Assembly: GCA_037447435.1 (NCBI GenBank)
Contig: JBBIGR010000004.1
Location: 32,001 to 96,000 of the forward strand
DNA length: 64,000 nt
Source: Fibrobacteria bacterium
GTDB lineage: Bacteria; Fibrobacterota; Chitinivibrionia; Chitinivibrionales; FEN-1185
Reading direction: 5' to 3'
Below, piece by piece: positions 38,568-55,442 of the stretch (within the stretch, counting starts at the first letter, position 1; each line of letters opens with the position of its first letter). Under the pieces are notes generated by a model. That model did no database searches, was not told where the DNA came from, and saw only the letters and a program-made list of their open reading frames with translations. Made by a program: the position numbers and the translations under genes.

Positions 38568-40010
38568 TTACTGCCCGACGGTTATCCTGCGGGCAAGATC
38601 CAGCCCTGCCGGATTGGTAATGCGGAGAATGTACGCTCCTTTTGTTTTAACCATGTTTTGCAGGGGCAATGCATGGCGGCCTTTTGCATATGTCGACATC
38701 GGAAGCTGCCAAACCCGTTGCCCGCTGCAATTGAAAAGGCTTAGGGCAAGACTTTGGTCGGCATCGAGGTTAAAAACAACGGACTTCTTGACAACAAGGA
38801 TAGCGGACAGCGCCGGGTTCGTGCGACGGGCCGGAAGCCCTTTTTGCACGGCATCCACGCCGATTCGCCCGTTCAAATCGACCGGGTTTTTGAGCCATTG
38901 CACCAATTGCTGCGCTGTCACGAATCTGACATCGGGTTTGGTGAGCGCGTAGTTGATAAACGACTCAACAACGCCTTTTCGCTGCGCCTGGGTGATGAAC
39001 GGGATCGAATCCGAGGGATCGTCTGAGACGTATTCGTCGGGATGGAAATTGATCGTGATAGGGCATCGGTTTCCCAAAAAACGCTGGTCCAGGGAATATT
39101 TCAAGGTCGCGAGATATTCCTCGCTGTCCAATTGACAGCATTCGTCGTCGAAACTGTGTATAAGGTTATAATCGAACCCGGTCATTTTGCCGTTCGTCGT
39201 ATCAAACCAATCGATGCCTTTCAGAATTCGCCCTCTTACTCCGGGTTTGAATCCGTATTTGGCGGCAACCGAGTCCGGCGGAACCTCGTAATTGTAAACA
39301 GGGATTTCCCAGAGCCCCGGAGTTTTTCCGCACGTGGAATAGGTATACGTCGGATCTTCTTTGACCCATTCCAATTGAACCGCGTCCGAAGGGCTGCCGT
39401 TGTCCAGGGTGTAGGGCCAAAAAAAGCATGTTCCGTCCTGATCGTCTTCCACCCCTTCTTCTATACTGCAATCGTACAAATAGTTTCGAGCGGCAAGGAT
39501 CTGATAAGTAAACGCATTATACGAAAGCAGCGGGGTCCTGAACCCGACAAAAGTAGATCGGTCAAGTTGCATGGCCAATGCGGTCAGCGAATCGGATTTT
39601 GCAATGGTCTTCGTCCAATCCGCGAGGCTGCGTTTGTAGCCGTCGGTATAATGCGAAAACGTATGATTGCCGACCTCATTGCCATCTGCATAAACCCGTT
39701 TCCAGGCCGACACGCACGCCGAATCGGAATACGACGACCCGATCAAATAAAAACTCATCCGGACAAGGGCGCTGTCAAAGGTTTTCGCATTTCCTTTTCC
39801 CGCCGGATTGCGTTTGTTTTTTATGAAATTACTGATCCAATCCATGCCTTCGGGCATTGTATTGTCATCGGCACCCAGGACGATAAATACGGGAACCGAA
39901 TCTTTGGAAAGCCCTCCGGGAGGACCGGCAAACGGATTTGCAACGTCTATCGACCATGTTGTCCCGCACAGAGCAAAAACCAAAAAAAACATAAACAAAA
40001 GTCGTTTCAT
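38568..40010 (-). CDS. Secreted polysaccharide deacetylase (CE4-like) with T9SS-like C-terminal domain
   Basis: Signal peptide from ATG 40010; 'LGADDN', 'EVGNHTFSH', 'GFRTPLL', 'YDCSIEEG', 'FWPYTLD'; CTD 'LSLFNCSGQRV...GAYILRI'. Confidence 0.85.
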   Translation of the reverse strand: MKRLLFMFFLVFALCGTTWSIDVANPFAGPPGGLSKDSVPVFIVLGADDNTMPEGMDWISNFIKNKRNPAGKGNAKTFDSALVRMSFYLIGSSYSDSACVSAWKRVYADGNEVGNHTFSHYTDGYKRSLADWTKTIAKSDSLTALAMQLDRSTFVGFRTPLLSYNAFTYQILAARNYLYDCSIEEGVEDDQDGTCFFWPYTLDNGSPSDAVQLEWVKEDPTYTYSTCGKTPGLWEIPVYNYEVPPDSVAAKYGFKPGVRGRILKGIDWFDTTNGKMTGFDYNLIHSFDDECCQLDSEEYLATLKYSLDQRFLGNRCPITINFHPDEYVSDDPSDSIPFITQAQRKGVVESFINYALTKPDVRFVTAQQLVQWLKNPVDLNGRIGVDAVQKGLPARRTNPALSAILVVKKSVVFNLDADQSLALSLFNCSGQRVWQLPMSTYAKGRHALPLQNMVKTKGAYILRITNPAGLDLARRITVGQ

Positions 40011-40090
40011 TTTCCACAACCTTCTTTTTGAAAACGTGATTGTAATCCCGGTTAAAAATATGTCGGCACGTTCATTCTTGCAATGCCGGA

Positions 40091-40618
40091 TCATTCATCA
40101 CGAAGGGTTTTTACCAGGCGCGCACGGGCCAACTCCAATAATCTGAGAACCCCCGGCTCCTTATAATCCGGATAAGTCCATGAAAAAAACCTGAAATTTC
40201 CCTTCCGGTAATGAAGCGTGACTTCGCCGAATATACCCTGAGACAAATAAATTCTATGGTAAAAATCCTTCGTACTAGCCAAAATCAGTTTATCGCGGGT
40301 AATATATCCCGGATCAAGGTTTATCGTGCGTTTTCCATTTATTGCGTATCGTGCTTCAATTCCGTTGGTCACGTTTTTTATCGTCGATAACGCTTCCCTG
40401 TCTATATACTTTTCAAACACGCAATATGTTTTTTGCAGATCATTTCCCATTTCATTTTCGTAATATCCAGTATGATGAAACGGCACGGGACCGAATATTC
40501 TATCGACAGGACCGTACCTATCGGTGAGAAGCCTTACTACTTCGTCAAGTGGTACCGACCGCTGGAGCATAATTCCCATAAAAAGAACCGCGTTGTACGG
40601 CACGGACGCTTCACCCAT
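40091..40618 (-). CDS. DUF4416 family protein
   Basis: 'TGYYENEMG', 'RTINLDPGYI...ILASTKDFYHRIYL', 'WTYPDY'. Confidence 0.85.
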   Translation of the reverse strand: MGEASVPYNAVLFMGIMLQRSVPLDEVVRLLTDRYGPVDRIFGPVPFHHTGYYENEMGNDLQKTYCVFEKYIDREALSTIKNVTNGIEARYAINGKRTINLDPGYITRDKLILASTKDFYHRIYLSQGIFGEVTLHYRKGNFRFFSWTYPDYKEPGVLRLLELARARLVKTLRDE

Positions 40619-40761: not shown

Positions 40762-41124
40762 ATGCAATTTCTTTTGACCTTGCAAAAGAAAAACGATCAT
40801 ACGGTGTTTAACCTTGCCGGCGATCTGAATTACGAAGGCGCCTGCAAGCTTAAAAACACGTTCAACGAGGTTCTGGCCGGCGGAGAAGTACATTTTGTTC
40901 TTGATTTGACCGGGCTTAAAATTATTTCAAGTTATGCCTTGTCTACTATTCTGAAATTATCGTATATGGCAAAAAAAATGGACGGTTCGGTCAACATCAT
41001 CTGTGGGCAGGGAAATGTGTGGGATGTATTTTATGTGCTCGAAGTCGGTAAAGTCATCCCGGTATTCGAATCAATCGAAGCATTTTTGGCTTCTAAATCA
41101 AACGCCGGAACATCATCGCAGTAG
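40762..41124 (+). CDS. STAS domain protein (anti-sigma factor antagonist-like)
   Basis: 'VFNLAGDLN...FVLDLTGLKIISSYAL...VWDVFYVL...VFESIEAFL'; GGAGA RBS. Confidence 0.85.
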   Translation: MQFLLTLQKKNDHTVFNLAGDLNYEGACKLKNTFNEVLAGGEVHFVLDLTGLKIISSYALSTILKLSYMAKKMDGSVNIICGQGNVWDVFYVLEVGKVIPVFESIEAFLASKSNAGTSSQ

Positions 41125-41148: not shown

Positions 41149-42486
41149 GTGGCACGCTCATTAAGTTTTTCAGGAGGAATTTTTCCTCCAAAAAATCTTC
41201 AGAATCCTGAATCCCTTGTTGTCGAGGAACTTTCGCAACCGCCTCGCATTTATTTGCCGTTATTACAACATTCCGGCGCAATTGCAAATGCCGTAGTAAA
41301 ACGCGGGGACCGGGTACGCAGAGGCCAAATTATCGGCGAAATATCCCAAAACCTTTCCGCGGCAATTCACAGTCCTATTTCCGGATCTGTTTCGGCAATA
41401 ACGCCGGTTCAGCATCCGAGCGGAAAACAGGTACTCGGCATCGAAATCGAAAACGACGGTGAAAACACACCTTTCGAAATGACCGGTATGTCAACGCCGT
41501 GGAAAGAAGCAGCACCGCAGGAAATTATTCAGAAAATTCTTTCATGCGGCATCGTCGGCATGGATAATGACGGTTTTCCCATCCACGTAAAACTTTCGCC
41601 CCCTGCCGACAAAGCGATCGATACCCTTTGCATCGACGCGACCCAAAACGAACCGTATGTTGCAAGCGACCTGCCGTTGCTTATCGAGAAAACGGAAGAC
41701 ATTCTAACCGGCGTTCTTATTGCGAAAAAAGTGCTCGGCGCAACAAAGACGATTTGTGCTGCGATGTTCGAAAATACAAGCATGGTCGATGCCTTGAAAA
41801 AAGCGCTTGAAGACGTTCGGTTTAAAGATATTCAGCTCGTGCTCACAAAATCAAAGTATCCCCAGGGTGCTGAAAAAATACTGGTTAAAACGCTTACAAA
41901 ACGAGAAACCCCGATCGGCGGTTCTCCCCTCGATATAGGATGCGTCGTATTGAATGTTTCAACCTGTTATGCAATATTTAATGCCGTTTGCAATGGGATT
42001 CCACTGTATCAAAGGATTGTGACCGTTGCAGGCCCCTGCGTAAAAACCCCAAAAAATCTGCTCGTACCGTTCGGTACGCCGATTTCGTACCTGCTGCGGC
42101 ATTGCGACACCGATATGGCGCGTGTTAAAAAAGTCATTGTCGGCGGACCTCTTCGAGGCCTCGCGCAAGCGGAGGTCGACGTGCCGATCATTAAAACAAG
42201 CACTGCGGTTTTAGCGTTCGATACCTTGACAGAGGGGATCAAACGATTCGATTGCATAAGCTGCGGCAGATGCGTCCGCGTGTGCCCCATGAGGCTCACG
42301 CCGTGTTACCTAATGAAATTTGTCAATATGGATAAAAACGCCGAAGCGATAAACTGGGGTGTTCAAGATTGTATAGAATGCGGCTCATGCTCGTTTGTGT
42401 GCCCGTCAAAAATCAACCTTGTCCATTTCATTAAATTAGGAAAATATCGGGCAGAATCCACTACCTCTACGGTAAAAAAGAATTGA
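41149..42486 (+). CDS. rnfC: Rnf complex subunit C, with divergent FMN/NAD motifs
   Basis: 'SFSGGIFPP', 'LPLLQHSGA', 'IHSPISG', 'KYPQGAEK', 'RIVTVAG', two CxxCxxCxxxCP motifs. Confidence 0.92.
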   Translation: MARSLSFSGGIFPPKNLQNPESLVVEELSQPPRIYLPLLQHSGAIANAVVKRGDRVRRGQIIGEISQNLSAAIHSPISGSVSAITPVQHPSGKQVLGIEIENDGENTPFEMTGMSTPWKEAAPQEIIQKILSCGIVGMDNDGFPIHVKLSPPADKAIDTLCIDATQNEPYVASDLPLLIEKTEDILTGVLIAKKVLGATKTICAAMFENTSMVDALKKALEDVRFKDIQLVLTKSKYPQGAEKILVKTLTKRETPIGGSPLDIGCVVLNVSTCYAIFNAVCNGIPLYQRIVTVAGPCVKTPKNLLVPFGTPISYLLRHCDTDMARVKKVIVGGPLRGLAQAEVDVPIIKTSTAVLAFDTLTEGIKRFDCISCGRCVRVCPMRLTPCYLMKFVNMDKNAEAINWGVQDCIECGSCSFVCPSKINLVHFIKLGKYRAESTTSTVKKN

Positions 42487-42491
42487 ATACC

Positions 42492-43538
42492 ATGACAGAT
42501 TCAAACACAACATTGGACAATTCCGGCGCCTTGCTTCACCTTTCAACGAGCCCGCATATCCGACATACCGAAGCGGTCGGTTCCATCATGCTGTCGCTTG
42601 TTTTGGCGCTTATCCCGGCCTGCATCGCCGCATTTTTCATTTTTGGGATATCGGCTTTTTTGGTTATCGGCGTGACCATCGTCGCCAGCGTGGGCACCGA
42701 AAGCGTCATTCAATGGCTTACAAAAAAGAAACAATCGATACGCGATTTAAGCGCCGTGGCAACGGGATTGCTTTTGGCGCTGACGTTGCCGCCGCATTGC
42801 CCCCTCTGGATAGCGGCAATCGGCGCCGTTTTCGCAATCGCGCTCGTTAAAATGCCGTTCGGCGGCCTCGGACATTCGCTTGTCAATCCTGCGTTGGCAG
42901 GCCGGACGTTTTTGCTGCTATCGTTTCCTGCGGCGCTTACGAAGTATACGGCACCGTTGCACGGATCGATTTTCGGCTTGCCGCATCCGCTCGACGGCGT
43001 CACCGCGGCAACCCCTTTGGTCTACTACAAAAACGCGCTTTTAACGGGCGTTTTCAACCCTCTTGATCTGCAGGACACGTTGCCGAATTTATTTTGGGGC
43101 AACGTCGGCGGGAGTCTCGGGGCAACGTCGACGGTGGCCCTGTTCGTCGGCGCGATGTTTCTCTTCTATAAAGGCATCATCCGATTCAGGATTTCATTGT
43201 CGTTCATCGGAACCGTATTTCTCCTTTTCTGGATTTTCAATAAAACCGGCGGTTTTTTCACGACCGAAGCATTGATCGTCCCGATGTATCAAATCATGTC
43301 GGGCGGATTGATACTGGGCGCTTTTTTTATGGCAACCGACCCGGTTACCTCTGCCGTCACCCAAAACGGGAAATTCCTCTTCGGGATCGGATGCGGAGTC
43401 CTGACATTCCTTTTTCGATCCTTCGGCAGTTTTCCCGAAGGCGTCGGATTTGCCATTTTGCTCATGAATATCTGTGTGCCCCTCATAGACCGGTTTTCCA
43501 GACCCAAACGTTTCGGCGAGGTAAAAAAACATGAATGA
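42492..43538 (+). CDS. rnfD: Rnf complex subunit D
   Basis: 'SPHIR', 'DLSAVATGLLLALTLPP', 'KMPFGGLG...NPALAGR', FMN-Thr motif 'DGVTAATPL', 'AFFMATDPVTS', 'PEGVGFAILLMN'. Alternative TTG start at 42483. Confidence 0.95.
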   Translation: MTDSNTTLDNSGALLHLSTSPHIRHTEAVGSIMLSLVLALIPACIAAFFIFGISAFLVIGVTIVASVGTESVIQWLTKKKQSIRDLSAVATGLLLALTLPPHCPLWIAAIGAVFAIALVKMPFGGLGHSLVNPALAGRTFLLLSFPAALTKYTAPLHGSIFGLPHPLDGVTAATPLVYYKNALLTGVFNPLDLQDTLPNLFWGNVGGSLGATSTVALFVGAMFLFYKGIIRFRISLSFIGTVFLLFWIFNKTGGFFTTEALIVPMYQIMSGGLILGAFFMATDPVTSAVTQNGKFLFGIGCGVLTFLFRSFGSFPEGVGFAILLMNICVPLIDRFSRPKRFGEVKKHE

Positions 43539-43722
43539 CGTCGTTAAATCGATACTTTCGATTTCGTTCATCGCCATGGTGTGCGGTCTCATTGCCGCTC
43601 TGTCATTTAATTCCGTCAAACCGGACCCGGTATTTTGCATCGGCAATTACAATGCGCATGTAACGCCCTCATTCACCTTGGATTCCACACCGCCTCAAGC
43701 AGGCATGGGAGCATCGCAATGA
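43531..43722 (+). CDS. Truncated RnfG-like membrane peptide (63 aa, no FMN-binding domain)
   Basis: Occupies the rnfG position; 'MNDVVKSILSISFIAMVCGLIAALSFNSVKP' resembles the RnfG N-terminal anchor; overlaps the rnfD end and the rnfE start. Confidence 0.6.
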   Translation: MNDVVKSILSISFIAMVCGLIAALSFNSVKPDPVFCIGNYNAHVTPSFTLDSTPPQAGMGASQ

Positions 43723-44309
43723 AAAGCGATTTGAAAGATTGGTTTGTCAATAAAAACCCCGTGTTTACCATGGCCATGGGACTGTGTCCGGCAATTGCGG
43801 TCACGACGAATTTGAAGAATGCCGCAGGAATGGGGTTTTGCACGCTCTGTGTGCTCGTCGCGTCGAACGCTACCGTATCAATCGCCAGGAAATGGATCCA
43901 TTATAAGGTCCGGATTCCCTGCTATTTGCTCATCATTTCAATGTGGGTTACGATTGCCGATATTATCCTGAGCGCAAATTTCCCGGTGCTGCGCCAAAAT
44001 CTTGGAATTTTCATTCCGCTTATTGCGGTCAATTGCATAATTCTCAACCGATCCGATTCATTTGCATCCAAAAACAAACTGAAAGACTCGATATTCGACG
44101 CATTAAGCACGGGTTTCGGTTTTTTTCTGGTCCTTGCCATATGCGGTTTCATCCGCGAACTGGTAGGATCGAATAAAATCTTGGGACTTACGAGCATAGG
44201 GCATTTTCAAGGAATTCAGGCATTTTCCTATGCATGCGGGGGCTTTTTCTGCTTTGCATTGCTTTTTGCGGCGCTAAATGCCTACAGAACGGCGGGTAAA
44301 CACCAATGA
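43719..44309 (+). CDS. rnfE: Rnf complex subunit E
   Basis: 'NPVFTMAMGLCPAIAVTT', 'VRIPCY', 'LGIFIPLIAVNCIILNR...FASKN', 'GFIRELVG'; ATG 43719. Confidence 0.93.
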   Translation: MKSDLKDWFVNKNPVFTMAMGLCPAIAVTTNLKNAAGMGFCTLCVLVASNATVSIARKWIHYKVRIPCYLLIISMWVTIADIILSANFPVLRQNLGIFIPLIAVNCIILNRSDSFASKNKLKDSIFDALSTGFGFFLVLAICGFIRELVGSNKILGLTSIGHFQGIQAFSYACGGFFCFALLFAALNAYRTAGKHQ

Positions 44310-44929
44310 TTCCATTTCAATCCGTTTTAGAAACCTTCGTTTCTTCGATGCTTGTCAACAACATCGTTTTTATCCTGATGATCGGGGTTTGTCCCTTTTG
44401 CGCCCTGCCGAAAAAAATGTCGCAATCGCTGGGAATGGGATTCACGGTTGTCGGCGTCATGGCCGTCGCCGGTGCTGTCGGTTACGCACTGAACCGGTAT
44501 ATTCTAATGCGCAACAATCTGTTTTATCTTCAGACAATGGTCTTTATCCTGGTCATCGTCATTATCGTACAGCTCATCGAATTACTGGTCGAAAAATTCT
44601 GGCCGTCGGCATACGAATCGATCAGTTCGTTTCTCCCTTCGATTACGACGAATTGCGCGGTACTTGCGGTATGCATCATGGCGTGCAACACATTGTCGAA
44701 CCATAATCAGGCATCCTCGTTCGCAAAATCGACCGTTGTCAACATCGGTTGCGGATTCGGGTATTTACTCGCCGTTATTCTGATGGCGGGCATCAAACGA
44801 AAACTCGAAATGACCGAAATTCCAAGGCCGTTCAAAGGCCTCCCTATCGCCCTGCTGTCCGCAGGACTGGTATCCATGGCTTTTATCGGTTTTTCCGGAT
44901 TCACTTTTACCACACTGTTCGGAGGATAA
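44306..44929 (+). CDS. rnfA: Rnf complex subunit A
   Basis: 'LVNNIVF...GVCPF', 'YLQTMVFILVI', 'FLPSITTNCAVL', 'IPRPFKGLPIALLSAGLVSMAFIGFSG'. Confidence 0.93.
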   Translation: MIPFQSVLETFVSSMLVNNIVFILMIGVCPFCALPKKMSQSLGMGFTVVGVMAVAGAVGYALNRYILMRNNLFYLQTMVFILVIVIIVQLIELLVEKFWPSAYESISSFLPSITTNCAVLAVCIMACNTLSNHNQASSFAKSTVVNIGCGFGYLLAVILMAGIKRKLEMTEIPRPFKGLPIALLSAGLVSMAFIGFSGFTFTTLFGG

Positions 44930-44933
44930 CGCT

Positions 44934-45953
44934 TTGGGCATTTTTCTCCCCATTGTTTGTTTGGGATTGTTAGGGCTTGCTTTCGGGCTCTTGGTTTCAA
45001 TTACAACTAAACGAGTATCGGTTTTCTCAAATCACACCATTCAAAAAATCAAAGACGCTCTCCCTAATGTCAATTGCGGGGTTTGCGGATATGCGACCTG
45101 TGCCGCATTTGCAAAAGCCGTTGCCGAAGGAAAGAAAGAACCCACGGGATGCATACCCGGAGGCGCCAAAAGCGCGCATGCTATCGGCGATATTCTCGGT
45201 ATCACCGTCACCCTTTCCGAACCGCATATGGCCATTGTAAAATGCAAAGGCGGCGATAAAGAAGCCGCAATGCGCTGCGTATACGATGGAATTCACGACT
45301 GTCATGCGGCAATTTTGGCGGGAAACGGTCCCAAAACCTGCGTCGACGGCTGCTTAGGACTCGGCAGTTGCGTCAAGGCATGTCCCTTTAACGCGCTCTC
45401 CATCAACGAAAACAATGTCGCTGTTGTAAACCCCGACGCCTGTACCGGATGCGGTGCGTGCGTCTCGGTATGTCCGCGCGGCATCATAGATCTCATCCCC
45501 ACGGTACACAAAATCTACCTCGCCTGCTCGAACCACGACCGCGGCGCCAGGGTAAAGAAATATTGCGAAGTCGGATGCACGTCGTGCACGCTTTGCGTCA
45601 AATCGACGCCGTCGGACGCGATCACGATGGTAAACAATCTCCCTGTTCTCAATTATAAAGCTTTGGAAAACTTCGTCGTTGCGGCGTATTCATGCCCGTC
45701 GCATTGTTTTGTGGACCTCGTTAAACATCGTCCCAAAGTGAATATCGATGCAAAATGCGACGGTTGCACGTTGTGCGTGAGCTCATGCCCCACAACGGCG
45801 ATATCCGGAGAAAAAGGCATGCGCCACGTGGTAAACAAAGAAAAATGTATCGGATGCGGGTTATGTTTAAACCGATGCCCGGTCCACGCGATTGCCATGT
45901 GGGGCGGACTCGGTTATGCCGAAGGCAGCAGAAAACGACGAGCCCGTATCTGA
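44934..45953 (+). CDS. rnfB: Rnf complex subunit B (polyferredoxin type)
   Basis: N-terminal TM; 'LPNVNCGVCGYATC...CIPGG'; several CxxCxxCxxxCP motifs; TTG start after GGAGG. Confidence 0.93.
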   Translation: MGIFLPIVCLGLLGLAFGLLVSITTKRVSVFSNHTIQKIKDALPNVNCGVCGYATCAAFAKAVAEGKKEPTGCIPGGAKSAHAIGDILGITVTLSEPHMAIVKCKGGDKEAAMRCVYDGIHDCHAAILAGNGPKTCVDGCLGLGSCVKACPFNALSINENNVAVVNPDACTGCGACVSVCPRGIIDLIPTVHKIYLACSNHDRGARVKKYCEVGCTSCTLCVKSTPSDAITMVNNLPVLNYKALENFVVAAYSCPSHCFVDLVKHRPKVNIDAKCDGCTLCVSSCPTTAISGEKGMRHVVNKEKCIGCGLCLNRCPVHAIAMWGGLGYAEGSRKRRARI

Positions 45954-45970: not shown

Positions 45971-47212
45971 TTACCCGGCAATCCCCTTTTTTCTGAGAAT
46001 ATCCCCGCAGCAAAGAGCGGGTTCCGTTTTGCAATATACAAGCCTGTTTGTTTTTGCACAGCCGATACGGTTGCCGTTTGCGTCGCGCAAATCAACAACG
46101 GTGGCGTCAAACGGTTCCGATCCGATTTTTCCCGGTAAAACCGATACGGTGTCTTCGAGGTTAAACGGATTCTTCACGTCGACGATAGGCCCCTTTTCCC
46201 CTTGTATTTCACGGACCACGCCGACGACCCTGTAGTCTTTTCCAAGGCGCTCGTTGCGTATGTCCTGTAAAATCATTTCCGTTCCGTAAAATCCGGTCGT
46301 GTACGGTCTGTGGTCCAATCGTTCCAATTCCTCTTTCCACGACGCTTTAACGGAATATTCTGTTCGGTTCATTTGCATACTGTCTAATGCGGCCCGGTAC
46401 ACCGAAACGACCGATGAGACATAATGGACACTGCGGTTACGGCCTTCTATTTTCAACGAAGAAACGCCGCTTTCGACAATGCGATCGAGAATCGGCAATG
46501 CATTCAGATCTTTGGAATTCAATACATACGCGGTTTTTTCATCGATGTATTCCTCTATTGTCAAAAATTCCTCCGAGGGCGGGCCCGATTGAAACACGGG
46601 CGCTATTGAATATTGCAAACGGCACGGTTGCGGGCAATCGCCGAAATTGGGGTGGCGCATTCCCCTGTACGCACCGAGCAAACAACGCCCCGATACGGAT
46701 ACGCACATGGCGCCGTGGACGAAAACTTCGGTCTCTACCCCCGATTGCTTAGTAAGAAAGGCGATCTGCGCCACGGTCAATTCTCTGGGCAAAATGACCC
46801 TGCGTATCCCCTGCGCGGCCCAAAACCGCGCGCTTTCGGCATTGAAAGTGCCGGTCTGCGTACTTAAATGTAAAGGAATATCGGTATGTTTTTTACAAAG
46901 GGAAAACACGCCCGGGTCGCTGACGATATAAGCATCGACGCGATGGGGCAGTTTGTGGATTGCCTGCACGATTGCCGCAACGTCGCATAGCATATCGTCG
47001 CTCGGCATCACATTGAGGGCGCCGTACACTTTTTTTCCTTTGTCATGAGCCATGCTGCAAAGGTCCGCAATTTCCGATGCGGAAAAATTGATACTGTGTG
47101 CGCGCAAATTTAAATTGCCGCAACCGGCATATACGGCATCCGCGCCATGGTCGAACGCAGCTTGCGCAACGCTGAAGGAAGCCGCGGGTGCCAACAATTC
47201 GGGTAGTTTCAT
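45971..47212 (-). CDS. Peptidase U32 family protein (TrhP-like Fe-S hydroxylation protein)
   Basis: 'PELLAPA', 'GADAVYAG', 'LHLSTQ', 'EVFVHGAMCVSVSGRC...CPQPCR', 'SLKIEGR'. Confidence 0.9.
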   Translation of the reverse strand: MKLPELLAPAASFSVAQAAFDHGADAVYAGCGNLNLRAHSINFSASEIADLCSMAHDKGKKVYGALNVMPSDDMLCDVAAIVQAIHKLPHRVDAYIVSDPGVFSLCKKHTDIPLHLSTQTGTFNAESARFWAAQGIRRVILPRELTVAQIAFLTKQSGVETEVFVHGAMCVSVSGRCLLGAYRGMRHPNFGDCPQPCRLQYSIAPVFQSGPPSEEFLTIEEYIDEKTAYVLNSKDLNALPILDRIVESGVSSLKIEGRNRSVHYVSSVVSVYRAALDSMQMNRTEYSVKASWKEELERLDHRPYTTGFYGTEMILQDIRNERLGKDYRVVGVVREIQGEKGPIVDVKNPFNLEDTVSVLPGKIGSEPFDATVVDLRDANGNRIGCAKTNRLVYCKTEPALCCGDILRKKGIAG

Positions 47213-49664: not shown

Positions 49665-52600
49665 TCACCACGCTTCTTTTTTTGCAGCAGCCGCGTTCGA
49701 CGGTTGTTTTTCGGAATGTTGCAAAACAAAATTATACAAACTTTGAATTTTCGCATCGTTGGAACGCAATTTATCCGCTTTTTCAAGGAGCGGCAAAGCG
49801 TCCGAATACCGTTCGGTTTTAACATACCCTCTGGACAACTGATACATAAAATCGGGATCATTCGGTTTCAACGCATTTGCCATTTCCAAAAACACCATGG
49901 CGTCGTTTGCCTGATGTTTTTCCAGAAGCGTCACGCCGATATCTTCACAAGCAAGAGGATTCGACGCGTCGCGCTGTATGTATTGCTGATACGCCTCAAG
50001 CTCCAGCTTCGGCCGTCCCGTTTTCCCGTAAATTTTACCTAAATCGATCCAGAGAGTCGGAATACTGTCTTTTTGCGTAAGGAATTTCTTTAAAAAAAGC
50101 GAGGCCTTTTCCAGGGTTGCCGGTTGCTTTGCATACAATAATCCGGCGCCCAAAAGGTTCCGTATGTCTTTGGGATACAAAGCGGCATTTTGTTCGTATA
50201 TCGCGGCGGCCAGCGGTATGCTGACTTTCTCCGTCAGTTGCGCCTTTCTGTACGATGCGTCGGCATCTTTTACCTCAGGAAATTTCGTATAGGCATTATA
50301 TGCGGCGGTCGCATTGGCATTATCGCCGAGATTGTCGTACGATTCCGCAAGCATTTTAAACATGAGCGCCCCATGCGGGTTTACTTTTTTTCCGTCCCGG
50401 TAAAACCCTTTCAAATATTCCAGGACTTCCGCGCATTGCTTGTAATACTTGCCGTTGTAATACGCTTTGCCGAGCAAATACCAGTATTCGGGGTCATTGG
50501 TCTGGTCCTTGGGAATTTTTGCAAGTAAACGTATTGTCCCGTCATAATCCTTGTTTTTATACGCGTCCTGGGCAAGCATCATCGCAATGCCCGGATCATT
50601 CGGCGCTTTTGCCGCATATTTCTTATACGCCTCCGCCGCCTGGTCGGGTTTATTCTGTTTTGTATATAGATCCCCGAGGATTTTATATTCCGTAATCGCG
50701 TCGGGATTAATGGCGACCGCCTGTTGATAAGTCACAATCGCATCCATGATATCTCCCGATTTCGCATAGCAGCGGGCAAGCGACGAAATCACCGTGAAGT
50801 TCCGCTGATCGAGTTGCAATGCCTTATTGTAATAGGAAATCGCCTTTGGATAAAACGTTTTCTTTTCATACGTACTTCCAAGGGTCGCATACATGGTCGC
50901 ATCGGCTTCGCCGGCACCGATTGCCGCGTTGAGAACCATGAGGACTTCCTCGGGAGTTCCCCGTGCAACCACAAGTTCCGCGTATCGCTTGAATATCCCT
51001 TTAATGTGCGGATTAACCGAAAATGCGGCCCGATATGCCAGATACGCACCGCTTTGGTCTTTTTGATCGTACAGAAAATCGGCCAGGTCTTTTTGCGCGT
51101 CCGCATCTTTGGGTCTTTGCGCCGTGTATTTGCGCAAAAACGCCATGGCGCCGTCCTTATCATTCGTCTTTACGCACAAATCGAATAACGTCTTATTGAT
51201 ACCGACATCCAGCGGCGTCAATACGGCAAGTTTCCTGTACAATTCCTTTGCTTTAGGATAATCGTTCTGCTGAAGGCACGCAAAGGCGTACATGGAAAGT
51301 ATCGGCGCCTGGGATACCATTTCCGAAGGAACAAGCGCGAAATATTTTGCCGTCGCGTCATAATCCTTTTTCTTGAAAGAATACTCCGCAATCATTTTGG
51401 CAAGCCCGTATTCCTTCGGTTGTTTTTCAAGATATTTTTTATATACCGACATGGCCTGGTCGGTTTTCATTTGCTGCATGTACATGTCGCCGAGCGTTTT
51501 TAAAATCTTCTGGTCCTGCGGATTCAAGGCCACGACCTGTTCGTAGGTTATCGAAGCTTCGGTGACGTCGCCGGTTTTCGATTGACATGCTGCAAGCGAC
51601 ATGAGAACCGGGACATTTTTCGAATCGTATTGCAACGCTTTTTGATACATCGGTATGGCTTTTGCAAAGGCGGCCTTCTTTTCATAAGCCCCGCCGAGCG
51701 CCGCATACACGCCGGCATCGCCCTCGCCCGCCTTGACGGCAGCCGAATACACCGCCATGATTTCGTCGGCAGTACCGTTTTTCGCGACGACTTCGCAATA
51801 CCTTTTGTAACTCCCTTTTATGGCGGGATCCGCAACCATTGCCGCATGATAGGCGGCACCCGCCAAAGCCATGTCTTTCCGATCGTACAACGCATCGGCC
51901 AAATCGCGTTGCGCCTGGGCGTCTTTCGGGCTTAACGCCGCAAACCGTTTGAGATGCGACAGGGCTTCTTCTTTGTCGCCGTCACGCATGCACAAATCAT
52001 ACAAAGTCTTTTCTATAAGCGGGTCTTGCGGCGCAAAGGCCACCATTTGCTTATACAGCATTTTCGCTTTTGTATATTCCTTGGTCTGATAATACGATTG
52101 CGCAAGCATAGACAATAAGCCTGTTCGTTTCGAATCGTTGCCGGAAACCATAGACAAATACCGGACCGCTTCGGCGTAATTTTTCGATGCGTACTCCTTT
52201 TCGCCGACAATATACGCGACATCGAAATCGCGGGGTTCTTTTTCGAGGTATTTTTTATAGACGTTATGGGCCGCGTCCTTTTTGCCCAATTTCGTATACG
52301 TTTCCGCCAACTGTTTATACAGCTTCGAATCGGTCGGGTTTAAGGCGATAAGTTGCTCATAGGTAATCGAGGCTTCGGCCGCGTTGCCCGCCTTAAGCTG
52401 GCAATTCGCCAAAAGAGTAAGCACCGGCAGGTTCTTGGGGTCAACCGCCAGCGCCTTTTGACATAAAGGAATCGCCTTTGAATAAAGCCCCTGTTTAAAA
52501 TAGGAATTTGCCTGCGCGGCATACATGGCCGCGTCCGCTTCGCCGGCATTGACTGCGCCGCTGAGGGCAAAATCGACATCCGCTGCGGTCCCTTTTTTCG

Positions 52601-55376
52601 TGGCAAGGTCAAAGTACCTTTTATAAATGCCTTTCAAAGTCGGATCGGTTGCCAAGGCCCCCTTGTATGCGGCAAAGGCGCCCGCCTCGTCCTTCTGCGA
52701 ATACAGTAAATCGCCCAAATCTTTCTTTGCAACCGCGTCCGTCGGTTTTAATGCGACATATTTGCGTAAATAGCCCGCAGCGTCTTTCGCAAGGTCATTA
52801 TCCGCCGCGCATACCGAATACAATAACTTGTACAGTTCGGGATTTTGCGGGGAGATGGCGGCCAATTGCGTCAGGACCGAAAATGCCTTTTTGTAATTTT
52901 TGGCGAAATAACTCGCCTGTCCGAAATGGAAAAGAAACTCGGAGCGTTTCGCATCCTCGCCCGAAACCATAGAGAAAAACCGGGATGCATCCTCGTAATT
53001 TTTTTGTTTGTATGCATACTCGCCGACAAAAGCAGCTATTTTGCCGTCCTGGCTCCGTTTTTCAAGGTATTTCTTGTACACCGACACCGCATCCGCTTCC
53101 CTGTTCTTCTTCACGTACAAATCGCCGAGCATTTTATATTCGTCAATTGCAGCCGGATTCAACGCCACGACCTGTTCAAACGATATTGTCGCGGCATCCG
53201 CTGCCCCGGTAGCAAGCTGGCAACGCGCGAGCCCGCTTAACACCAAGACGTTTTTAGGCTCCAAATTAAGGGCCTTTTGGTATAATTCGAGCGCCTTGCC
53301 GCACAATCCCTGCTTTTGATATACCGCGGCCAATGCCCCGTACATGCTTGCATCGGCTTCTCCTGCCGCAATGGCACCGGCCATGGCCGCGTTCATTTCC
53401 TCTTTCGTGCCTTTGATGCTTACAAGTTGAGAATACTGCTTGTAAATCCCTTTGATTTTCGGATCGAGTTTAAGGGCGGTGCGATACGCCGTAAGAGCGG
53501 CGTCGAAGTTTTTCTGGTCGAAATACAAATTTCCGAGGTTTTTCTGGGCAATCGGATCTGCGGGACTCAGGGTCAGGTATTTTTTCAAATAGCCTGCCGC
53601 GGCAATTTTATCGCCGGCATTATTGGCAATGTCGTACAAGTTTTTAAAAACGTCCCCGTTTTGGGGGGACATAACGCTCAGTTCTTTGTATAAATCGTAG
53701 GCCTGCTTATAATCCCGCTGGTCAAGATAGTATTTGGCGAGCCGAAGGCGCGACTCGATGTTCCCTTTTTCGAGTTCAATGATTTTTTTGTCCAAAAACG
53801 ACAAATTGGTCGCGTCGTTCAATTGTTTGTAACAATATGCCAATTGTTTGATATATTCCAATTCATACGGCTTTTTCGCTATGAGAAACTCAAGTTGTTC
53901 CTTGGCTTCTTTGTATTGGTTGTTGCGGAAAAATCCTTTCGCAAGCACCATCCGGGGTTCCAAAACCGACGGATCGAAATGAACCGCCGACTCTGCCGCG
54001 TCTATGGCCTTGTCCCATTTGTCCAAGGCGGCTGCGGAAAGGGCCAGCCCGGTTGCCGCCTGCGGCGATTTTGCGATATAAAAACTTTTTTCATAATACT
54101 TGAGCGCGTCGGAATACCGTTTCGCCTTCAGGTTGTAATCGCCGAGAGTGAGAAAAACCTTGGGATCGTTGGGGCTGAGGGCGGTTATTTTTTCAAAAGT
54201 CTGTTTCGCTTTTTCCAATTGATTGTTGCGTTGATATAAATCGGCCAACCGTGCGTATGCCTCGACATTGTTTTTATCCGATGCAACGGCCTTTTCCAAG
54301 CTCGCAATCGCTTTTGCCGTCATTCCGGCTCCGTTATACGCATCGGCCAAAAGGAAATTGATGTCCGGAACCAGATGCGAATCGCTGTCGGCCGCGGCGA
54401 TCGCCCTGAAATGGGAAATTGCGCTTTCATAATTCTTTTTCTCCAAATCCGCCTTGCCGGCTTTGGAATGCGAAATGATGGCTTCGGGCTCGGCCGAAAA
54501 GCCGAACGCGTCTGCGGCAAGGTTATATGCTTTTAACGCACTTTCCATGCTGCCTGTTTTTTCCTGCGATACCGCCCGGCAGTATTGGTCCATGGCACTC
54601 AGCTTGATTTTTCCCGCAATTTTTTCAAATTCATTCGCAGCGGCGAGGAATTTGTCTTTTTGATAATAGGCCTTGGCCAAATCAAGGTTTGCATTCAGCA
54701 AGTTAGGATTACGCGTTATTGCTTCTTTCAGGTAAAATATCGCCGAATCCAGTTTGTTCGATTCGAGGAGCGAGCGTCCTATTTTATACGCATCGTCGGC
54801 ATTGGGCTGGGATGCGTAGGCGACTCTGAGCAACGGAATGGCCCGTTTGTAATCTTTTTCTTCCCAATAAATGTCCGCAAGTCCCCTGCTGGCGGCCGCA
54901 TTGGAAGGATCGGCGTTAATGACCCGCTCAAGCGCGCTTTTGGCGTCTTTTACCCGTTTCAATGCCATGCATGCCCTGGCATATTCCCAGCTTGCTTCGC
55001 CGGTAGGATTGACATCGACGGCTTTTTGCGCATAGGTCAAGGCATTGTCGGGTTGATTCAGCTTATTGTAAATTCGGGCGATGCTGTAGTAGGCCGTATA
55101 GTTCTTAGCGTCCATCCGCGAGCCGACGAAATAACACGCCAACGCCTTCTCGTTCAGGCCCAATGCTTCATCCGCTGACCCGAGCTTTACCCACACGTCG
55201 GCGGTACGGTTTGCCGACGGCAATTTATCGTCTGCATAGGCTACCGCTTCGGAGTATTTCTGGGTTCTGATCAATCTGTCCAATGTTTCGTCGGCAAACA
55301 AAAAACTTGCCGTACCATAAAAGACAACGACGCAAATACATCCTATCAGGCGTTGTTTATAACCGGCCATTTGCAT
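49665..55376 (-). CDS. Giant exported TPR-repeat protein (about 1900 aa)
   Basis: Signal peptide after AAAGGAG RBS (ATG 55376); continuous 34 aa TPR periodicity; four 272-273 aa super-repeats. Confidence 0.9.
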   Translation of the reverse strand: MQMAGYKQRLIGCICVVVFYGTASFLFADETLDRLIRTQKYSEAVAYADDKLPSANRTADVWVKLGSADEALGLNEKALACYFVGSRMDAKNYTAYYSIARIYNKLNQPDNALTYAQKAVDVNPTGEASWEYARACMALKRVKDAKSALERVINADPSNAAASRGLADIYWEEKDYKRAIPLLRVAYASQPNADDAYKIGRSLLESNKLDSAIFYLKEAITRNPNLLNANLDLAKAYYQKDKFLAAANEFEKIAGKIKLSAMDQYCRAVSQEKTGSMESALKAYNLAADAFGFSAEPEAIISHSKAGKADLEKKNYESAISHFRAIAAADSDSHLVPDINFLLADAYNGAGMTAKAIASLEKAVASDKNNVEAYARLADLYQRNNQLEKAKQTFEKITALSPNDPKVFLTLGDYNLKAKRYSDALKYYEKSFYIAKSPQAATGLALSAAALDKWDKAIDAAESAVHFDPSVLEPRMVLAKGFFRNNQYKEAKEQLEFLIAKKPYELEYIKQLAYCYKQLNDATNLSFLDKKIIELEKGNIESRLRLAKYYLDQRDYKQAYDLYKELSVMSPQNGDVFKNLYDIANNAGDKIAAAGYLKKYLTLSPADPIAQKNLGNLYFDQKNFDAALTAYRTALKLDPKIKGIYKQYSQLVSIKGTKEEMNAAMAGAIAAGEADASMYGALAAVYQKQGLCGKALELYQKALNLEPKNVLVLSGLARCQLATGAADAATISFEQVVALNPAAIDEYKMLGDLYVKKNREADAVSVYKKYLEKRSQDGKIAAFVGEYAYKQKNYEDASRFFSMVSGEDAKRSEFLFHFGQASYFAKNYKKAFSVLTQLAAISPQNPELYKLLYSVCAADNDLAKDAAGYLRKYVALKPTDAVAKKDLGDLLYSQKDEAGAFAAYKGALATDPTLKGIYKRYFDLATKKGTAADVDFALSGAVNAGEADAAMYAAQANSYFKQGLYSKAIPLCQKALAVDPKNLPVLTLLANCQLKAGNAAEASITYEQLIALNPTDSKLYKQLAETYTKLGKKDAAHNVYKKYLEKEPRDFDVAYIVGEKEYASKNYAEAVRYLSMVSGNDSKRTGLLSMLAQSYYQTKEYTKAKMLYKQMVAFAPQDPLIEKTLYDLCMRDGDKEEALSHLKRFAALSPKDAQAQRDLADALYDRKDMALAGAAYHAAMVADPAIKGSYKRYCEVVAKNGTADEIMAVYSAAVKAGEGDAGVYAALGGAYEKKAAFAKAIPMYQKALQYDSKNVPVLMSLAACQSKTGDVTEASITYEQVVALNPQDQKILKTLGDMYMQQMKTDQAMSVYKKYLEKQPKEYGLAKMIAEYSFKKKDYDATAKYFALVPSEMVSQAPILSMYAFACLQQNDYPKAKELYRKLAVLTPLDVGINKTLFDLCVKTNDKDGAMAFLRKYTAQRPKDADAQKDLADFLYDQKDQSGAYLAYRAAFSVNPHIKGIFKRYAELVVARGTPEEVLMVLNAAIGAGEADATMYATLGSTYEKKTFYPKAISYYNKALQLDQRNFTVISSLARCYAKSGDIMDAIVTYQQAVAINPDAITEYKILGDLYTKQNKPDQAAEAYKKYAAKAPNDPGIAMMLAQDAYKNKDYDGTIRLLAKIPKDQTNDPEYWYLLGKAYYNGKYYKQCAEVLEYLKGFYRDGKKVNPHGALMFKMLAESYDNLGDNANATAAYNAYTKFPEVKDADASYRKAQLTEKVSIPLAAAIYEQNAALYPKDIRNLLGAGLLYAKQPATLEKASLFLKKFLTQKDSIPTLWIDLGKIYGKTGRPKLELEAYQQYIQRDASNPLACEDIGVTLLEKHQANDAMVFLEMANALKPNDPDFMYQLSRGYVKTERYSDALPLLEKADKLRSNDAKIQSLYNFVLQHSEKQPSNAAAAKKEAW

Positions 55377-55442
55377 ATTCTCCTTTTTCCCATCCAACAG
55401 TGAAGCAGCACTTCAAAAGCAATTCCCTTTTTAATAATTTCG

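Follow-up and report, generated by a model that had tools for sequence, protein, structure and literature searches.

An rnf operon with a truncated rnfG

The window, meaning the whole 64,000-nucleotide stretch analysed here (G000:C4:32001-96000), carries an rnf operon in which the gene for RnfG is reduced to a stub between rnfD and rnfE. In our labels G denotes genomes (G000 being that of the window), L denotes loci or metagenome contigs, and g denotes genera (g1 being the window's genus, with six genomes). The operon reads as follows.

41149..42486, plus strand: rnfC, 445 residues; Pfam RnfC_N, Complex1_51K and Fer4; aligned to 7ZC6 and 8AHX
42483..43538, plus strand: rnfD, 351 residues; Pfam PF03116; mapped on 7ZC6 and 9ERI
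43531..43722, plus strand: RnfG stub, 63 residues; RnfG membrane helix (residues 2-27) and a poorly conserved tail, flavin mononucleotide (FMN) domain deleted
43719..44309, plus strand: rnfE, 196 residues; Pfam PF02508; start codon ATG at 43719
44306..44929, plus strand: rnfA, 207 residues; AE1 ligands C29 and C117
44934..45953, plus strand: rnfB, 339 residues; polyferredoxin with an N-terminal anchor; the least changed subunit

Between the stop codon of rnfD and the start of rnfE there are only 180 bp. The initial annotation considered this too short for RnfG, and indeed no frame of the interval encodes RnfG or an FMN domain. The reading frame at 43531-43722 was said to retain an RnfG-like transmembrane helix, and hhalign confirms this: residues 1-31 align with the N-termini of 13 RnfG orthologues of full length (92%, E 6.6e-7). 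An AlphaFold2 (AF2) model likewise shows a single helix at residues 2-27 (predicted local distance difference test, pLDDT, 86-94), followed by a disordered tail of low confidence. The stub has no Pfam match at E<=0.1 and, as first noted, no S/T-G-A-T flavinylation motif. The periplasmic domain with covalent FMN on that motif, by which RnfG of an Rnf complex is recognized, is therefore missing from this helix-only protein.

The stub overlaps rnfD by 8 bp and rnfE by 4 bp (ATGA), as described before. Read as a sign of maintained translational coupling, the overlaps carry less weight, since both are inherited: intact operons of G007, G014, G017, G023 and G024 show the identical -8/-4 spacing. Thus rnfG has kept its two ends and lost its central part, which points to an in-frame internal deletion. 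All six rnf frames are open, in agreement with the earlier report of no frameshifts. An assembled contig of run X1 covers 42000-45500 with 0 differences, X1 being possibly the window's own source and so not independent. Misassembly or frameshift is ruled out by the presence of the stub in five other genomes of the genus and by the lack of any frame encoding RnfG. The RnfG stub is a real trait of the lineage.

Distribution of the stub

A search of related genomes for the same small gene, which the initial annotation had suggested, recovered the stub in all six genomes of g1 (Fibrobacterota, Chitinivibrionales), with 60-68 residues. With five further metagenome contigs the range is about 60-72 residues; additional stubs lie in L088, L089, L091, L093 and, partially, L094. 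Two scans of the collection yielded 160 loci, 132 with both rnfD and rnfE visible, and a stub-sized gap was found in 11, all from the window's clade and seven of them duplicates of genomes already counted. A short-protein profile search gave 10 matches among 478 candidates, and the eight sequences inspected were all stubs of the same kind. The closest sisters (G007, L096 and L098) have an RnfG of 217-219 residues with the motif and already show some drift in RnfC, so RnfC may have begun to change before the deletion in rnfG.

Residues kept and lost in the other subunits

We mapped residues on 7ZC6 (C. tetanomorphum, Ct) and 9ERI (A. woodii, Aw) and compared 10 stub-clade operons with 41 intact ones, taking residue roles from the accessible parts of bioRxiv 2024.06.21.599731 and PMC9588780. 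The cofactor sites reported as retained are so in all ten stub operons: T177 of RnfD aligns with the flavinylated Thr153 of 7ZC6, and RnfA C29/C117 and RnfE C23/C106 are the four AE1 [2Fe-2S] ligands. Also kept in all ten are the RnfD riboflavin ligands N135 and D286, and the RnfD GETS glutamate E214 (Ct Glu185) is replaced by Ala in every one. RnfB has 28 of 28 conserved Fe-S-type cysteines, including C48/51/56/73 of its mobile cluster domain.

RnfC keeps both 4Fe-4S motifs (8/8 Cys) and its fold (AF2 pLDDT 89.7; Foldseek template modelling score, TM, of 0.92 to 9ERI_C), and its top structural matches are RnfC proteins (TM 0.90-0.93), ahead of NqrA (0.69-0.72). Its Gly-rich loop for flavin and nicotinamide adenine dinucleotide (NAD) reads GMDNDGFP in place of GMGGASFP (DND for GGA), and DATQNEP stands in place of NGAECEP. 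Positions E206, N208, K209, G241, L259 and M336 are changed in 10/10 stub operons and kept in 40-41 of the 41 intact ones; F143 is changed in 8/10. The changed positions presumably line the NAD(H) cleft and others contact FMN, judging from NuoF. The canonical electron path, which the initial annotation proposed to break at RnfG and perhaps at RnfC, is broken at RnfG, where the FMN domain is deleted, and probably at RnfC, where presumed cleft residues have drifted.

The gating and Na+ residues considered, in A. woodii RnfA/E numbering, are L108, T110, T111, Q85 and E88, with R67, E115, L103 and V106. In the window the RnfA gate Leu (Aw L108) is S112, the equivalent of Aw E115 is Asp, and the equivalents of T110, T111, Q85, E88, R67, L103 and V106 are kept. 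Across the stub clade Aw L108 (RnfA L112) is lost in 10/10, T110 (RnfA T114) in 9/10, and T111 and Q85 in 8/10; the T110 equivalent is also missing in 2/41 intact operons. New cysteines appear at RnfE C142 (10/10), RnfE C173 (9/10) and RnfA C32 (9/10), with none in the 41 intact operons. RnfE C142 also occurs in G018 and G033, there without C173.

A series of stripped Rnf operons in the order

The survey covered 81 genomes of the order Chitinivibrionales. An RnfB orthologue was found in 79 of them; in the two without a match (G001 and G073) the operon lies at the end of a contig. Without G063 and G073, 79 genome loci were tallied: 57 encode a complete RnfG that carries the motif, one has a variant motif, one is broken by an assembly gap and four do not span the junction. 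The rest, together with G018, are degenerate and include the six stubs of g1. G006 has an RnfG without the motif and a deleted RnfD FMN loop, G012 has a shortened RnfG without the motif, and in G018 the RnfG motif is present and three of four AE1 cysteines are lost. Genus g22 has no rnfG in any of the five genomes with a visible junction, and has lost 3-4 of the four AE1 cysteines and the RnfD FMN loop. Genus g31 has only rnfC-rnfD-rnfB (3/3). The metagenome loci L107/L108 are rnfCDEAB without rnfG.

Wherever the gene is in view in degenerate copies, RnfB has 28/28 Cys (19/19 copies), enough for seven 4Fe-4S clusters, and RnfC has 8/8 Cys (22/22). RnfD N135 and D286 are among the sites kept at at least 95% over 23 degenerate sequences, and the FMN-Thr of RnfD is kept in g1 and g31.

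In G070 and G071 (L316 and L317) RnfB has no membrane anchor and starts inside the rnfD stop codon of a three-gene rnfCDB operon; RnfB of G072 likewise lacks a hydrophobic N-terminus.

A mixture-model RnfB tree, with 37 rows chosen to sample lineages (14 of them degenerate), places the genus as sister to the intact G007/L096/L098 (100/97) and g31 within intact f5 genomes (98/94). A single clade of the 14 degenerate rows is rejected by the approximately unbiased (AU) test (p-AU 0.0086), the tested group having been chosen by the trait with an earlier FastTree tree already known. In that FastTree tree, of RnfB, RnfC and RnfD, G006, G033, G018 and L107/L108 join the genus (0.96); because the mixture-model tree lacks this grouping, we read it as possible long-branch attraction. 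Judged by sequence, the operon is vertically inherited, descended from the order's intact Rnf, and its stripping arose independently, with at least two origins and probably three or more.

Selection on the operon

Maximum-likelihood ratios of replacement to silent substitution rates (dN/dS) in the genus are 0.125 for rnfC, 0.079 for rnfD, 0.158 for rnfE, 0.19 for rnfA and 0.067 for rnfB. Twelve intact operons give 0.02-0.04, synonymous sites being saturated and the values therefore rough. At similar dS the genus pair G002/G003 and the intact pair G017/G023 differ widely in RnfA (0.245 vs 0.017) and RnfE (0.218 vs 0.032). For control genes the two pairs give similar values (0.06-0.20 and 0.12-0.17; 0.06-0.23 over genus pairs), indicating that the relaxation is specific to Rnf. 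Two close genus pairs show dN/dS of 0.06-0.19 in nine of ten gene comparisons and 0.38 in one. In g31 the rnf genes give 0.12-0.15, and RnfA in g22 reaches 0.38-0.59.

Sites invariant in the 12 intact operons are kept by the genus at 77% in RnfB, 61% in RnfC and RnfD, 37% in RnfE and 31% in RnfA. Frames are open in all stub-clade operons despite interspecies dS >1. Relaxed selection, which the initial annotation had named among the signs of simple decay that would refute its proposal, is seen in part (several-fold in RnfA/E), but neutral decay is contradicted by dN/dS mostly of 0.06-0.3. By these estimates pump-specific constraint is gone and ordinary constraint remains.

Other pumps, flavinylation genes and candidate partners

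Searching the genomes for FMN_bind/RnfG and apbE, as had been proposed, revealed no other RnfG in four of the six genomes of the genus, and ApbE in 6/6. G000 has a complete second Rnf on C9 (RnfG of 209 residues, MTGAT) and an Nqr-like operon on C5, and G002 also carries a second Rnf. A single rnfD is present in each of G001, G003, G004 and G005, and none of the five genomes searched, these four included, has an RnfG above the TIGR01947 cut-off. No FMN_bind domain at all was matched in G003, an assembly of about 40 contigs that is 98% complete; G001 is only 73% complete.

ApbE and NusG-II are kept in all six g1 genomes, including the four without another Rnf. In g22 ApbE is missing in 3/3 genomes tested and NusG-II in 6/7, and on this loss NusG-II was rejected as a core partner. 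A small membrane-anchored FMN_bind protein, unlinked to rnf, is present in five of the six genus genomes. As a universal substitute for RnfG it was rejected, since G003 lacks it, it shows no synteny with rnf and intact genera have it too. In G000 (C47:28757-31430) apbE runs convergently towards a NusG-II gene and a gene for a membrane protein, an arrangement seen in 5/7 family loci examined; we take the membrane protein to resemble the Gx-transporter/EetB family.

Ech with intact NiFe motifs is found in g1 (6/6), g2 and g22 (7/7) and in G006 and G007, the name being our assumption from Pfam match, gene order and presumed motifs. Genus g31, G018 and G012 have no Ech and instead have a second Rnf and/or Nqr (g31 4/4), and another pump of one kind or the other is present in 6/6 degenerate genera, which may have made pumping by this Rnf dispensable. 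Genera g3, g30 and g32 have Ech together with a full RnfG. UbiA-family matches occur in 5/5 genomes, of unassigned class and thus uninformative on quinones. Each of G001-G005 carries two copies of RACo (PF14574), and G000 carries none.

G000 has many energy modules, on contigs C5, C9, C12, C24, C25, C37, C40, C45 and C66. They presumably comprise, on C9, the second full Rnf next to genes for FeFe-hydrogenase; on C5, operons of Nqr-like and complex-I-like type; Ech on C66; group-4-like clusters on both C25 and C37; and menB on C40. The same genome has 15 open reading frames with at least two CxxCH motifs.

Flanking genes

The genes around the operon are listed here, with provisional names.

40762..41124, plus strand: 120-residue gene immediately 5' of rnfC (tblastn), presumably STAS/anti-sigma-antagonist-like
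40091..40618, minus strand: divergent upstream gene and synteny marker, seen in 52 scanned loci, presumably DUF4416-like
45971-47212, minus strand: gene converging on rnfB, presumably U32-peptidase-like
49665-55397, minus strand: presumably a 1910-residue TPR-rich protein
38568-40094, minus strand: presumably polysaccharide-deacetylase-like

The marker at 40091..40618 is common to intact and degenerate operons, including those of g1, g22, g31 and intact genera, showing that the same locus is seen in all. By tblastn the 40762..41124 gene lies at the same place in 15 scanned loci, all from the window's family clade only. The U32-peptidase-like gene, on the opposite strand, is not conserved next to the operon, and the genes at 49665-55397 and 38568-40094 show no conservation there except by chance. 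A scan for promoters and terminators gave counts at chance level.

A non-pumping relay as the proposed explanation

In A. woodii there is neither growth nor ferredoxin:NAD+ activity without the FMN of RnfG (bioRxiv 2024.06.21.599731, accessible part). Because its removal kills this activity, the canonical reaction is very unlikely in the stub genus, and the complex has probably ceased to link the oxidation of ferredoxin with NAD+ reduction and ion pumping. We propose, with a probability of about 0.5, that it encodes a non-pumping, membrane-tethered RnfB-RnfC-RnfD iron-sulfur/flavin relay in which RnfA/E and the stub serve as scaffold. This proposal follows from the core shared by the degenerate copies (RnfB clusters, RnfC clusters and the RnfD riboflavin site) and from the binding of RnfC to both RnfB and RnfD, described in the accessible part of the same preprint.

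The helices of RnfB, RnfG, RnfA and RnfE form a four-helix bundle (PMC9588780, in the portion available), and TM1B contacts TM1G (bioRxiv 2024.06.21.599731, likewise in part). The stub helix would be kept as part of this bundle, holding the RnfB anchor, and the stub would also carry translation from rnfD to rnfE, with RnfA/E now mainly scaffold. The joint loss of RnfG, RnfE, RnfA and the RnfB anchor in g31 is consistent with such a role, and a structural function for the stub, raised in the initial annotation, is plausible. Lineages of Chitinivibrionales would have shed the pumping arm stepwise: g1 the RnfG flavin domain; g22 rnfG, AE1 and the RnfD FMN; g31 rnfG, rnfE, rnfA and the RnfB anchor.

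As to the route, electrons from reduced ferredoxin would enter at the RnfB clusters. The mobile N-terminal cluster domain of RnfB would then carry them by way of the vacated NAD cleft to the clusters of RnfC, from which they would reach the RnfD flavins without using the pumping arm of RnfA/E and RnfG. We consider this exact route unlikely. The mobile domain keeps its four cysteines even where AE1 is gone, which suggests that it has another partner. A wider reading, offered tentatively and at well below even odds, is that a pump-independent RnfB-RnfC-RnfD module represents a second Rnf job, a ferredoxin-fed iron-sulfur/riboflavin wire past the membrane arm, and that in the stub genus the new RnfA/E cysteines may make the old Na+ gate a thiol export route.

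Several observations weigh against the relay. The shortest distance between an RnfB and an RnfC cluster in A. woodii is >30 Å (bioRxiv 2024.06.21.599731, accessible part). A direct step from RnfB to RnfC would need a rearrangement, none of which is indicated here. Retention of the AE1 ligands, T177, ApbE and NusG-II fits a periplasmic path still in use better than a pure scaffold, and folding alone could explain why the Fe-S cysteines are kept. The presumed RnfC FMN contacts K148, N163, E168, E242 and N269 are mostly kept (7-10/10), and the roles given to cleft and contact positions are drawn from NuoF and not from a structure. Selection on the stub helix contrasts weakly with that on the tail (7 replacement and 15 silent changes vs 22 and 16, p=0.064). 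Ech occurs in 3/6 degenerate and 3/27 other genera (Fisher p=0.058) and is, as a sole cause, neither needed nor sufficient. A quinone acceptor was rejected, the futalosine pathway being found in 1/81 genomes and menB in 1/5 genomes examined; RACo activator, absent from G000 and g31, was rejected as a universal partner. No donor or acceptor gene tested tracks the degenerate lineages.

Alternative explanations

The U-shaped path might still run in the genus through a substitute periplasm-side carrier or thiol relay, such as free flavin, the small anchored FMN-binding protein, the NusG-II protein, or RnfE C142/C173 thiols exporting ferredoxin-level electrons. The retention of all four AE1 ligands and of RnfD T177 in 10/10 operons speaks for such a path, as do the new cysteines at RnfE 142, RnfE 173 and RnfA 32 (0/41 intact). 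ApbE and NusG-II, present throughout g1, are missing from g22 (3/3 and 6/7), where the FMN loop is deleted, and the small FMN_bind protein is found in 5/6 genomes. However, G003 has no FMN_bind protein, the small protein is unlinked to rnf and occurs in intact genera too, residues of the RnfC cleft and of the RnfA gate have changed, and C142 arose without C173 in G018 and G033. Furthermore, g22 and g31 retain RnfB, RnfC and RnfD without any AE path. Delivery to another periplasmic carrier, which the initial annotation had put forward, is thus possible within the genus, if unlikely there, and it does not extend to relatives that lack AE1 or RnfA/E/G and still keep RnfB/C/D.

A second alternative dispenses with electron flux: the complex would sense redox state, store Fe-S or act as a docking platform, its ligands kept for folding and assembly only. 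In its favour, the sites conserved throughout are precisely the cluster ligands and the contacts between subunits, the degenerate lineages are not tracked by any donor or acceptor gene, and what we take to be an anti-sigma-antagonist-like gene lies directly upstream in the window's family. Yet that gene is missing at this place in g22 and g31, and the riboflavin ligands, with the FMN-Thr in g1 and g31, are kept, which a store would not need. We regard this alternative as quite improbable.

Slow decay of a redundant pump after takeover by Ech or a foreign Rnf, with the lineages en route to loss, would account for the graded losses (the stub; then AE1 and the FMN loop; then RnfG, RnfE and RnfA), for the several-fold rise of dN/dS in RnfA/E (RnfA 0.38-0.59 in g22) and for another pump in every degenerate genus. 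It accords poorly with dN/dS of 0.06-0.19 in 9/10 comparisons (one at 0.38) and 0.12-0.15 in g31, with open frames in all stub-clade operons though dS is >1, and with RnfB, which has 28/28 Cys in 19/19 copies and an orthologue in 79/81 genomes. Slow decay of RnfB, RnfC and RnfD is unlikely on these sequences, and we give the explanation as a whole little credence.

Borrowing of a full RnfG from a second operon, which the initial annotation had offered, finds a source in G000 (C9, in addition to the Nqr-like operon on C5) and G002 and is nonetheless highly improbable, and rejected as a rule, since 4/6 genomes (G001, G003, G004 and G005) have no other RnfG, the stub would fill the RnfG helix site, and RnfC in G000 and G002 has drifted as in the other genomes.

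Other unusual rnf loci

Loci L103-L105, L110, L111, L173, L174 and L178 (the last three from Bacillota) carry rnfCDEAB without rnfG, and the two read, L103 and L110, have canonical motifs. FMN_bind genes lie elsewhere in the genomes of these loci, and G042 has a stand-alone RnfG-like gene of 191 residues; this set likely uses a true RnfG in trans. At L242:2640-7147 rnfC is followed by an RnfD fused to three FMN_bind domains (678 residues) and then by RnfE/RnfA without AE1 cysteines, with no rnfB in view; it looks like the opposite half-complex, from NADH to outside flavins. In the clostridial loci L197, L214 and L245 RnfD is followed by very divergent RnfE/RnfA (profile scores 41-91), and RnfD is overlong in L214 and L245.

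Comparison with known systems

Metabolic models built from genomes widely take the presence of rnf to prove that ferredoxin drives ion pumping. For a cultured relative an rnfCDGEAB operon is a predicted sodium pump (PMC4814513, available part), and five-gene rnfCDEAB operons are listed as working pumps, without comment in the available text of PMC11456536 and PMC10215811. In the open-access literature searched, neither an RnfG stub nor a stripped Rnf turned out to be described, and rnfCDEAB and rnfBCD appear there only as gene lists. An operon that is under selection without the essential RnfG flavin means that pump annotations drawn from rnf genes can be wrong; on its sequence the window operon, with no FMN site in RnfG, does not merit annotation as a functional ferredoxin:NAD+ pump. 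The natural, stepwise deletion series within one order names RnfB, RnfC and RnfD as a minimal core, and it opens questions on an Rnf role beyond pumping, on the bypass of RnfG and on the RnfG helix in assembly.

Clostridial-type RnfCDGEAB (A. woodii 9ERI; C. tetanomorphum 7ZC6) has the same gene order, and the window shares its five full-length subunits, the RnfC fold (TM 0.90-0.92), AE1, RnfB, the RnfC clusters, and the FMN-Thr and riboflavin ligands of RnfD. In contrast, the window's RnfG has no FMN domain, the RnfC loop and cleft, the RnfD glutamate (Ct Glu185) and the RnfA gate Leu (Aw L108) are changed, and RnfA/E have three new cysteines. In Methanosarcina acetivorans the Rnf works with the multiheme cytochrome MmcA, its output likewise rewired from the textbook path; that Rnf keeps a flavinylated RnfG (PMC12174285, accessible portion). 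The window operon has no cytochrome gene.

Two-subunit Nqr/Rnf-like systems are also partial and Rnf-derived, and electron carriage without the full semicircular path is proposed for them in the available sections of PMC8238504 and PMC10979944. They keep a flavinylated RnfG-like subunit and an RnfD-like subunit fused to an NAD-binding domain, whereas the window loses the RnfG flavin domain and keeps RnfB and RnfC; its RnfD has only PF03116 with no PF00175 fusion, and its stub no FMN domain. Na+-NQR is marked by NqrF, a cofactor-free NqrA and a flavinylated NqrC; in the window RnfB is present and RnfC keeps its clusters. As far as the accessible parts of PMC12174285 and PMC9588780 go, NqrA is an RnfC descendant that lost its FMN/NAD site, and the complex gained a new acceptor at the NqrB riboflavin. 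NqrA lost both 4Fe-4S clusters while Nqr keeps the FMN of NqrC and pumping, whereas the window operon keeps the clusters and loses the RnfG flavin.

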